DNA of 36,177 nucleotides from a virus (Duplodnaviria > Heunggongvirae > Uroviricota > Caudoviricetes), in the IMG/VR virus record IMGVR_UViG_3300025133_006513, positions 117,289 through 153,465 of that record; one strand, given 5' to 3'. The position numbers and the translations under genes were made by a program. The first letter of the stretch is position 1. Each line of letters begins with the position of its first letter. Positions 27,071 through 28,057 of this stretch are shown here, one piece after another. A model generated the notes under the pieces. The model was not told the DNA's origin. It was given only the letters and a program-made list of their open reading frames with translations, and ran no database searches.

Positions 27071-28057
27071 ATGTCTATTGGTGAATCACCAAAGAAGAAA
27101 CCAGCGAAACCCGCCAAGGCCGTCGGTAAGGCCAAGGCACCTGCGGGTAAAACCACCCCTGGTGTAGAGGCGAAGAACAAAGACAAGAAAATCCTGATCG
27201 ACCGTGTCGATCTTGAGTGGATTGCTCCATCTTGTCACTGCCCTCAAATCCTGATGAACGCTGCTGGACCTTTCACCCAGGCGGTCATCCAGCACCGCGA
27301 GAACGCAGGGGAGAACAAGGCGAAGAAGAAGAAACAACCACGTGATACTATGGCGTCGTATATCGACGCCATGCATGTGGCTGTCGGGAAGTACCATCCC
27401 GACTGGCTCCCGTACAACATCTACGGGTTCCCCAGTGTTGCATGGGCTAAGGCCATGGCGACACTGTCGCATCGCCTGGGCAAGACCCAGTACGCGATCG
27501 ACATTCTACAGTTCATCTTTGTGCATGGTTGCTACCGCGGGCTTATCCCGCTGTTCAACCAACCAGTGGATCTTACACATCCGCTGATCACGCCTGCTGA
27601 CGTACTCAAGGAAGTACCAGCAGCTAAACGCAAGGGCGTGATCGAGAACAACGCTGACTGGGACAAGGCACTCCTGAAGGTGCTCAAGGCTCAGCCAGAT
27701 ATCTATGCTCGCCCCACCATGCAGCAAGATATTACTTACGTTGGTGGTGGCTCGTCACGCAAAGCTATGATGGCGTACCGAGCTCGCTTTGATGATGTTT
27801 ATTTCTGCTTGCCCATCCAGCACTGGGTGGAGCGACTGGATCGCAGTGCTGTCGTCAACCTTGTCCACGCTGTGGGCCAGATGATGGGCGTTGGTGCGTG
27901 GCGCTTGGAGCGTCACGGGATCCATGGTGGTTTTCATATCGTTGGTGATATCAAGACGATCGATATCGCGTCTGATCCGCTGGAAACTATGCAGGCCCGC
28001 TTTACCCCGGATACGAAGTATCTTCTCGATGCCGCTAAGAAGTCCGTGGGTGGATAA
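27071..28057 (+). CDS. Cas7/RAMP-superfamily-like RNA-binding protein (Vipr-like candidate)
   Basis: C-terminal Gly-rich loop GQMMGVGAWRLERHGIHGGFHI; YGFPSVAWAKAM equivalent to RAMP xxP.SSxKG helix; N-terminal strand ...PQILMN; directly upstream of repeat array. Confidence 0.7.
   Translation: MSIGESPKKKPAKPAKAVGKAKAPAGKTTPGVEAKNKDKKILIDRVDLEWIAPSCHCPQILMNAAGPFTQAVIQHRENAGENKAKKKKQPRDTMASYIDAMHVAVGKYHPDWLPYNIYGFPSVAWAKAMATLSHRLGKTQYAIDILQFIFVHGCYRGLIPLFNQPVDLTHPLITPADVLKEVPAAKRKGVIENNADWDKALLKVLKAQPDIYARPTMQQDITYVGGGSSRKAMMAYRARFDDVYFCLPIQHWVERLDRSAVVNLVHAVGQMMGVGAWRLERHGIHGGFHIVGDIKTIDIASDPLETMQARFTPDTKYLLDAAKKSVGG

Follow-up and report, generated by a model that had tools for sequence, protein, structure and literature searches.

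The open reading frame at 27071-28057 of the window, i.e., of the whole 36,177-nucleotide stretch of viral DNA analyzed here, is identified from its sequence family and its predicted fold as the gene for a Vipr, the Cas7-like core protein of a phage VIPR system. VIPR (Viral Interference Programmable Repeat) is a CRISPR-related, RNA-guided DNA silencer of phages that was first described in 2026, and the reference work on it consists of unreviewed preprints (bioRxiv 10.64898/2026.04.26.720920; bioRxiv 10.64898/2026.04.26.720927; bioRxiv 10.64898/2026.10.15.759431). In the published architecture, which comprises Vipr, vap and vrRNAs, the phage-encoded Vipr is a RAMP with a single RRM and the vrRNA guides are built of GGY/NN pentamers; the ribonucleoprotein (RNP) binds double-stranded DNA with its NN bases, passing over one target base in each repeat, and acts as a silencer of competing mobile elements. 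By analogy with these systems, the protein of the window would most likely form an RNA-templated filament whose gapped code serves to bind the DNA of a rival element. The evidence comprises homology, predicted fold, the anatomy of the guide arrays, RNA-type covariation, and the contact residues that are kept or changed with respect to the Vipr of the Escherichia phage SUSP1 (type II VIPR; PDB 36pp). The window itself covers the final 36 kb of an IMG/VR virus record of 153 kb, which derives from marine metagenomes and is 71% complete according to CheckV.

The vipr gene lies on the plus strand, starts with ATG, is preceded by a GAAGGAG ribosome-binding site located 8 nt 5' of the start, and constitutes the sole long frame at its place; its product is a RAMP/Cas7-like protein of 328 amino acids. 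Neither Pfam nor a single-sequence search of the PDB gave a match for this protein, and the PHROGs collection returned a weak match to phrog_4652, a family of unknown function. Searches by tblastn produced weak matches only, to hypothetical proteins of Gordonia phages, and at the DNA level no similarity of the phage to GenBank phages was found. A locus-level search for relatives detected no close one in IMG/VR and a single short contig in metagenomes. An exhaustive HMMER search recovered 130 representative relatives, mostly of 200-310 aa, which have in common two conserved blocks (residues 60-165 and 210-295 of the query). When 71 of these relatives, none of which carries a Pfam domain (0/71), are aligned, residues R237, G269, and G286 are invariant, and the consensus closes with GIGxWRxEKxGxxGxF. 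The profile built from these 71 sequences matches the PDB entry 36pp, "SUSP1 Vipr protein", with an E value of 1.1e-14; this match to chain 36pp_D extends over about 190 residues (profile positions 30-220 against chain residues 4-190), that is, nearly the full chain.

The predicted structure points in the same direction. A sequence-only reading of this DNA had proposed a Cas7/RAMP-like protein from the order of five motifs, all of which are found at the residues given: PQILMN (58-63), YGFPSVAWAKAM (118-129), QQDITYVGGG (218-227), RKAMMAYRARF (230-240), and GVGAWRLERHGIHGGF (273-288). In the AlphaFold2 model, obtained with the 71-sequence alignment as input (mean pLDDT 87.8, pTM 0.82), these motifs follow the proposed structural order, with a strand (48-62) leading up to N63, a helix (122-135), a beta-hairpin (215-224/231-246), and a glycine-rich loop followed by a strand (289-297). 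The same reading had named a fold devoid of an RRM-like core as the result that would speak against it; the core is present in the model, together with the thumb hairpin and the G-loop of the RAMP ferredoxin-like architecture, and the RAMP reading therefore stands. The predicted domains are a basic N-terminal arm (1-45), the RRM core, a helical bundle (67-99), a helical insertion (161-214), the thumb (215-246, containing R237), the G-loop (269-288), and C-terminal helices. Foldseek comparison of the model with the PDB retrieved CRISPR RAMPs only (39 matches at E<=1e-3), Csm3 being the first with a probability of 1.0. VIA-align superimposed approximately 170 residues at about 4 A with Z scores of 9-11 and 8-11% identity, and its best 50 entries were all Csm, Cmr, type VII Cas7, Cas7-11 or Cmr1. 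In the ESM Atlas, the top matches were clusters of viral hypothetical proteins (TM 0.80-0.86 normalized by cluster length, 0.54-0.56 by query length), followed by Csm4, Cas7, DevR, and Cas5. Thus, the structural matches to RAMPs alone and the profile match to the SUSP1 protein bear out the Cas7/RAMP-like identity, and the suggested relationship with Class 1 CRISPR backbone proteins is supported by both the fold and the membership in the Vipr family. This link is not new, since it has already been published: Vipr has been proposed as an ancestral relative of those proteins (bioRxiv 10.64898/2026.04.26.720920).

Two extra parts had also been pointed out in the protein. Residues 1-45 look like a disordered basic arm in the model, because they are rich in lysine (12 Lys; 13 K+R vs. 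4 D+E) and their pLDDT is low (54-65), in agreement with what had been proposed for the N-terminus. The segment at about 161-214 (PVDLTHPL...DIYARP) is indeed an insertion when compared with SUSP1 Vipr and with the majority of the family, and it is modeled as three helices with pLDDT values of 84-94. The parts added to the folded core are modeled as helices, and the model shows no second RRM. Among the closest relatives (29-44% identity) the long basic N-terminus is common and the insertion is present in most. Both the arm and the insertion may provide additional contacts with nucleic acids.

The gene is embedded in a compact cassette, all of whose elements lie on the plus strand. The upstream transcription unit is closed by a hairpin resembling an intrinsic terminator (26982-27007; 10-bp stem with nine GC pairs, then a T-run), and next to it lies the left copy of a direct repeat of about 55 nt (27013-27068), leader- or promoter-like, which ends in GAAGGAG. 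After vipr comes a vap-like accessory gene (28077-28697, 206 aa), followed by a first vrRNA array (28698-29846) in which 12 hairpin repeats lie among 13 pentamer tracts (t0-t12), and which is closed by a terminator-like hairpin (29848-29875). A small ORF of 73 aa (29900-30121), with a strong AGGAGG ribosome-binding site upstream, separates this array from a second one (30125-30416), which contains three hairpin repeats and three pentamer tracts (t13-t15) and is in turn closed by a terminator-like hairpin (30419-30446) related to that of the first array. Finally, the right copy of the direct repeat (30449-30503), nearly identical to the left one, forms the leader of the next gene (30506-31408), for which no relatives were found in IMG/VR. 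The 153-kb genome contains two copies of this leader element and no more, and each of them comes just after a terminator. Because the two copies bracket the whole cassette (27013-30503), the arrangement suggests that the cassette was gained, or is able to be lost, by recombination between them. A search for an empty form of the site, by way of relatives of the next gene in IMG/VR and in the sibling phage G001, yielded none. An Rfam scan of the region between 26 and 31 kb gave no family, ribozymes included.

The position of the vap-like gene next to vipr fits the published vipr-vap pair, judging by the sequences of its relatives: homologs are encoded right after vipr in the related loci L004 (42% identity), L003, and L005, and in the sibling phage G003 (hhalign probability 96%). 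No match for the protein was obtained in Pfam or PHROGs, nor for its profile in the PDB or among GenBank phages, and its AlphaFold model is poor (pLDDT 49). The 73-aa ORF has a sole, sub-threshold match to the Pfam family CcdA (ribbon-helix-helix; E 0.08); its product is possibly a ribbon-helix-helix DNA binder, and might serve as a regulator or as an additional accessory protein. The initial description of the Vipr as a "stand-alone" protein is thus correct in one respect, as a search of the 153-kb record for Cas1, Cas6, and Pfam-RAMP genes gave none, but it does not hold in another, as vipr shares its cassette with a conserved vap-like partner gene and with guide-RNA arrays.

The hairpin repeats of both arrays covary as RNA of the plus strand. 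They are 38 nt long, occur in 15 copies in the same orientation and are absent elsewhere in the genome; the 11-bp stem shows a compensatory switch from GC to AU in seven of the 15 copies, and its G-U pairs are workable only in the RNA of that strand. Associated with these hairpins are 16 tracts, each of 9-14 UGY/NN units, which add up to 163 pentamers. Across these pentamers, T is found at the first position in 80%, G at the second in 88% and a pyrimidine at the third in 86%, and positions 4 and 5 carry zero information, with all 16 dinucleotides present at NN. Exact TGY units number 108, vs. 11.7 +/- 3.2 in shuffled sequences, and a period of 5 alone carries signal in the tracts (periods 3, 4, 6, and 7 carry none). 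The idea that the protein would be associated with a 5-nt periodic TGY/NN RNA is therefore matched by the array adjoining vipr, with its 163 pentamers. In every tract, the 5-nt steps come after an invariant ATTGCTT and two free bases. Each of the 15 tracts that follow a hairpin is in phase with that hairpin; toward the next hairpin, six tracts keep the phase and nine have one extra T in the gap. Since a stem-loop (repeat or terminator) is present after all 16 tracts but before only 15 of them, a crRNA-like product is favored, in which a short 5' handle would be followed by the tract and a 3' hairpin, these ends being predicted ones.

Such a layout brings to mind an ordinary CRISPR array, and the protein could be viewed as the Cas7 of a CRISPR-Cas system in degenerate or miniature form. 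The palindromic 38-nt repeats, spaced about 90 nt apart, have a repeat-spacer-like appearance, and the fold is nearest to that of Csm3; in addition, the repeat end ATTGCTT is presumably similar to ATTGAAA(C/G), with which many type I and type III repeats end. Nevertheless, this explanation is highly improbable: the "spacers" are not free sequences and obey a strict 5-nt code, the 153-kb record contains no Cas1, Cas6 or Pfam RAMP gene, and the sequence family to which the protein belongs is Vipr and no Cas7 family of Pfam. The identification as a Vipr with its own vrRNA arrays is clearly preferred.

The layout of the window's tracts recurs in the relatives L003 and L005, where a hairpin is followed by xTGCT(T/C), two free bases and the pentamers, even though their Viprs are only 34 and 29% identical, respectively, to that of the window. 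In L005, about 12 covarying hairpins are located on both sides of vipr-vap (L005:9650-9900 and L005:11680-12450), in the register seen in the window. The pyrimidine alone is fixed in the tracts of L005 (C/T 96%), with G2 present in only 45%, so that this code is more degenerate than any of the consensuses listed in the methods of the published survey. The repeat pattern of the window was searched in IMG/VR and was absent. Contigs of four marine metagenomes do not differ from the window, but they break at the hairpin repeats (28750-30250), and no array variants were seen among them; likewise, short contigs of the relatives L003 and L004 end inside repeats. Because contigs break or end at these hairpins, arrays of this kind are probably under-assembled in metagenomes.

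The fixed part of the pentamer can be compared with the residues that hold it. In SUSP1 Vipr, R138, W178, and R179 hold G2 and Y3, and H17 and D177 form hydrogen bonds with G1 (bioRxiv 10.64898/2026.04.26.720927). Mapping of these contacts onto the protein of the window by means of the HMMER alignment with 36pp shows that R237, W277, and R278 stand in the places of R138, W178, and R179; the three are conserved in 71, 64, and 63 of the 71 aligned sequences, respectively. The two readers of G1 correspond to N63 and A276 and are not kept. On the basis of the alignment, this combination fits a U at the first position of the pentamer, with G2 and Y3 maintained. Among the 71 sequences the two columns covary: H at position 63 is accompanied by D or E at 276 in 18 of 20 cases, and N by S or A in 35 of 41 (Fisher p 1.5e-8, a value that ignores shared ancestry). 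Since roughly half of the sampled family belongs to the N plus S/A class, N63/A276 marks a subclass of Vipr and gives no ground for exclusion from the family.

The two classes appear to track the presence of G at the first pentamer position. With H plus D/E, position 1 is G in SUSP1 (published), in 19 of the 19 units (100%) of the Gordonia phage ODay and in 58% of those of L011, and the sibling phage G003 has GGY units (by inspection, uncounted). With N plus A/S, it is T in 85% for the window (80% over all 163 pentamers), A in 50% for L012, A or G for L009, T in 45% for L003, and no base is preferred in L005. This correspondence, seen at the level of sequences, is a lead and not proof, because eight loci are a small sample. 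A further proposal, which should be taken as tentative and is rather less probable than its converse, is that the lineage represents a naturally re-coded VIPR, in which the replacement of the His plus acidic pair by N63/A276 retunes or releases the recognition of base 1 and gives rise to UGY/NN, and the register is set by a CRISPR-like element composed of the hairpin, AUUGCUU and two free bases. If this were the case, the clade would show the evolution of the fixed part of the code, and would look like a halfway form between vrRNA arrays and the hairpin-repeat arrays of CRISPR.

From the homology with SUSP1 Vipr, a mechanism can be proposed. Transcription of both arrays from the plus strand would yield up to 16 vrRNAs, each with 9-14 U-G-Y-N-N pentamers joined to the conserved stem-loop. 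One Vipr protomer would bind each pentamer, the thumb residue R237 and the G-loop residues W277 and R278 holding the fixed G and the pyrimidine, with the NN bases left exposed. The resulting filament would then read double-stranded DNA through the gapped NN code, and would block transcription of a competing phage, satellite or prophage. Assembly of the RNP, a DNA target, the skipping of one nucleotide per repeat and silencing are all transferred here from the homologous system.

Several searches for targets of the guides were carried out. In the phage's own genome, no match was found above control skip rules, and this absence of self-matches agrees with the control reported in the VIPR preprint. 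The exact 1-nt-skip patterns of tracts t1, t13, t14, and t15 gave no match in IMG/VR. When the 16 guides were scanned against four sibling genomes (745 kb) as well as the loci of the relatives, no match exceeded 83% under any skip rule, as expected by chance. Read as codons, the guides gave no recognized protein motif.

The fact that no target surfaced under the 1-nt skip rule is one of several points in favor of a Vipr-family RNP that works in a mode other than that of SUSP1, for example by binding an RNA target, by following another skip rule, or by regulating genes of the phage itself or of the host. The G1-reading residues differ from those of SUSP1, the basic arm, the helical insertion and the C-terminal helices are missing from SUSP1 Vipr, and the phage encodes its own multisubunit RNA polymerase, which makes for an unusual regulatory context. 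With two G1-reading residues not kept and 126 extra residues, the binding mode could indeed differ. Such a departure is nonetheless considered unlikely, though less so than the CRISPR explanation: the thumb, the helical bundle and the G-loop, which produce the gapped geometry in SUSP1, are all confidently modeled; the NN positions are uniformly variable, as programmable guides would be; and the lack of self-matches argues against self-regulation by perfect pairing. Silencing of a competing element by the DNA-binding filament is thus retained as the preferred reading.

The distribution of the system among related phages is patchy. With the phage RNA polymerase as query, 147 related IMG/VR contigs were collected. 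The closest sibling, G001, is a complete genome of 226 kb with 80% identity in the RNA polymerase. It lacks vipr and contains homologs of the genes at 23.2-26.5 kb of the window and of nothing beyond 26.5 kb, so that the part of the window to the right of this point is a hypervariable accessory region. A more distant sibling, G003 (54% RNA polymerase identity), carries a different VIPR of the GGY type. Since the closest sibling lacks vipr and the other one has a distinct system, VIPR is an accessory cassette in the variable region of this phage clade. In G003, a jumbo phage, long structured tails of about 110 nt are found 5' of vipr, with the vap homolog and two tRNA-like sequences after it (G003:C1:1-1800), and the G-loop of its Vipr has a His where other Viprs have Trp. 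Another observation concerns the Gordonia phage ODay (L002, MW534375), where a small module at 3394-5475, with the tail assembly chaperone gene on one side and that of the tape measure on the other, contains two HTH genes, a GGY/NN tract some 180 nt long and a vipr (gp19) whose annotation is "hypothetical protein"; this module is an unannotated VIPR cassette within a structural operon.

The absence of vipr from the closest sibling bears on a different view of the arrays, according to which they would be decoys or sponges, similar to solo vrRNAs, that redirect the VIPR machinery of a rival, the protein itself having a minor role. Orphan (solo) vrRNAs that hijack a rival's Vipr are on record (bioRxiv 10.64898/2026.10.15.759431). 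In the window, however, the arrays share their cassette with an intact vipr whose predicted RNA contacts fit the fixed bases of the arrays, and vipr is missing altogether from the closest sibling; a decoy function is therefore regarded as very improbable, and the arrays are best understood as guides for the Vipr encoded beside them.

The locus is a large and clean example of the xGY type from a marine jumbo phage, with 16 guides, and what it adds is a clean UGY code, a paired change of the G1 readers, a CRISPR-like register of hairpin plus handle, and an enlarged protein. The paired change of the G1 readers with the RNA leads to a directly testable hypothesis on what determines the fixed triplet, and the locus is a natural template for re-coded guides. 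The biochemically characterized examples of VIPR are of the GGY type only. Alternative repeat consensuses, namely YNNNG, NNNGG, and NNNNG, are given in the methods of the published survey (bioRxiv 10.64898/2026.04.26.720920); in this notation, UGY/NN, which can be written as YNN-U-G, is an instance of the YNNNG type, a "related consensus" of xGY type that is already within the published range, and what it has in common with the canonical motif is G2 and Y3 alone.

Compared with SUSP1 Vipr, the protein of the window has profile-level homology (E 1.1e-14), a single RRM core, a helical bundle, a thumb with an invariant Arg and a G-loop with Trp-Arg; both are phage-encoded, with an accessory gene (vap-like in the window) after vipr and flanking RNAs of 9-14 pentamers, in which the triplet is fixed and NN varies, joined to a constant part that is structured. 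On the other hand, it is larger (328 vs. 202 aa) and, unlike SUSP1 Vipr, has the predicted disordered basic arm, a three-helix insertion of about 50 aa before the thumb and two C-terminal helices, as well as N63/A276 in place of H17/D177. The guides differ accordingly in their fixed triplet (UGY vs. GGY), in their constant part (an 11-bp hairpin plus AUUGCUU vs. a pseudoknot tail) and in number (16 tracts in two arrays vs. four vrRNAs). With Csm3, Cmr4, and Cas7, the likeness lies in the RRM palm, in a thumb hairpin that flips bases at regular intervals and in the glycine-rich loop, whereas in the window three bases would be sequestered per 5-nt period, vs. a single flipped base per 6-nt period in those proteins. 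Finally, unlike Class 1 effectors, the Vipr of the window has no Pfam RAMP/Cas7 match and is accompanied by no partner genes for Cas5, Cas6, Cas8, Cas10 or Cas1.
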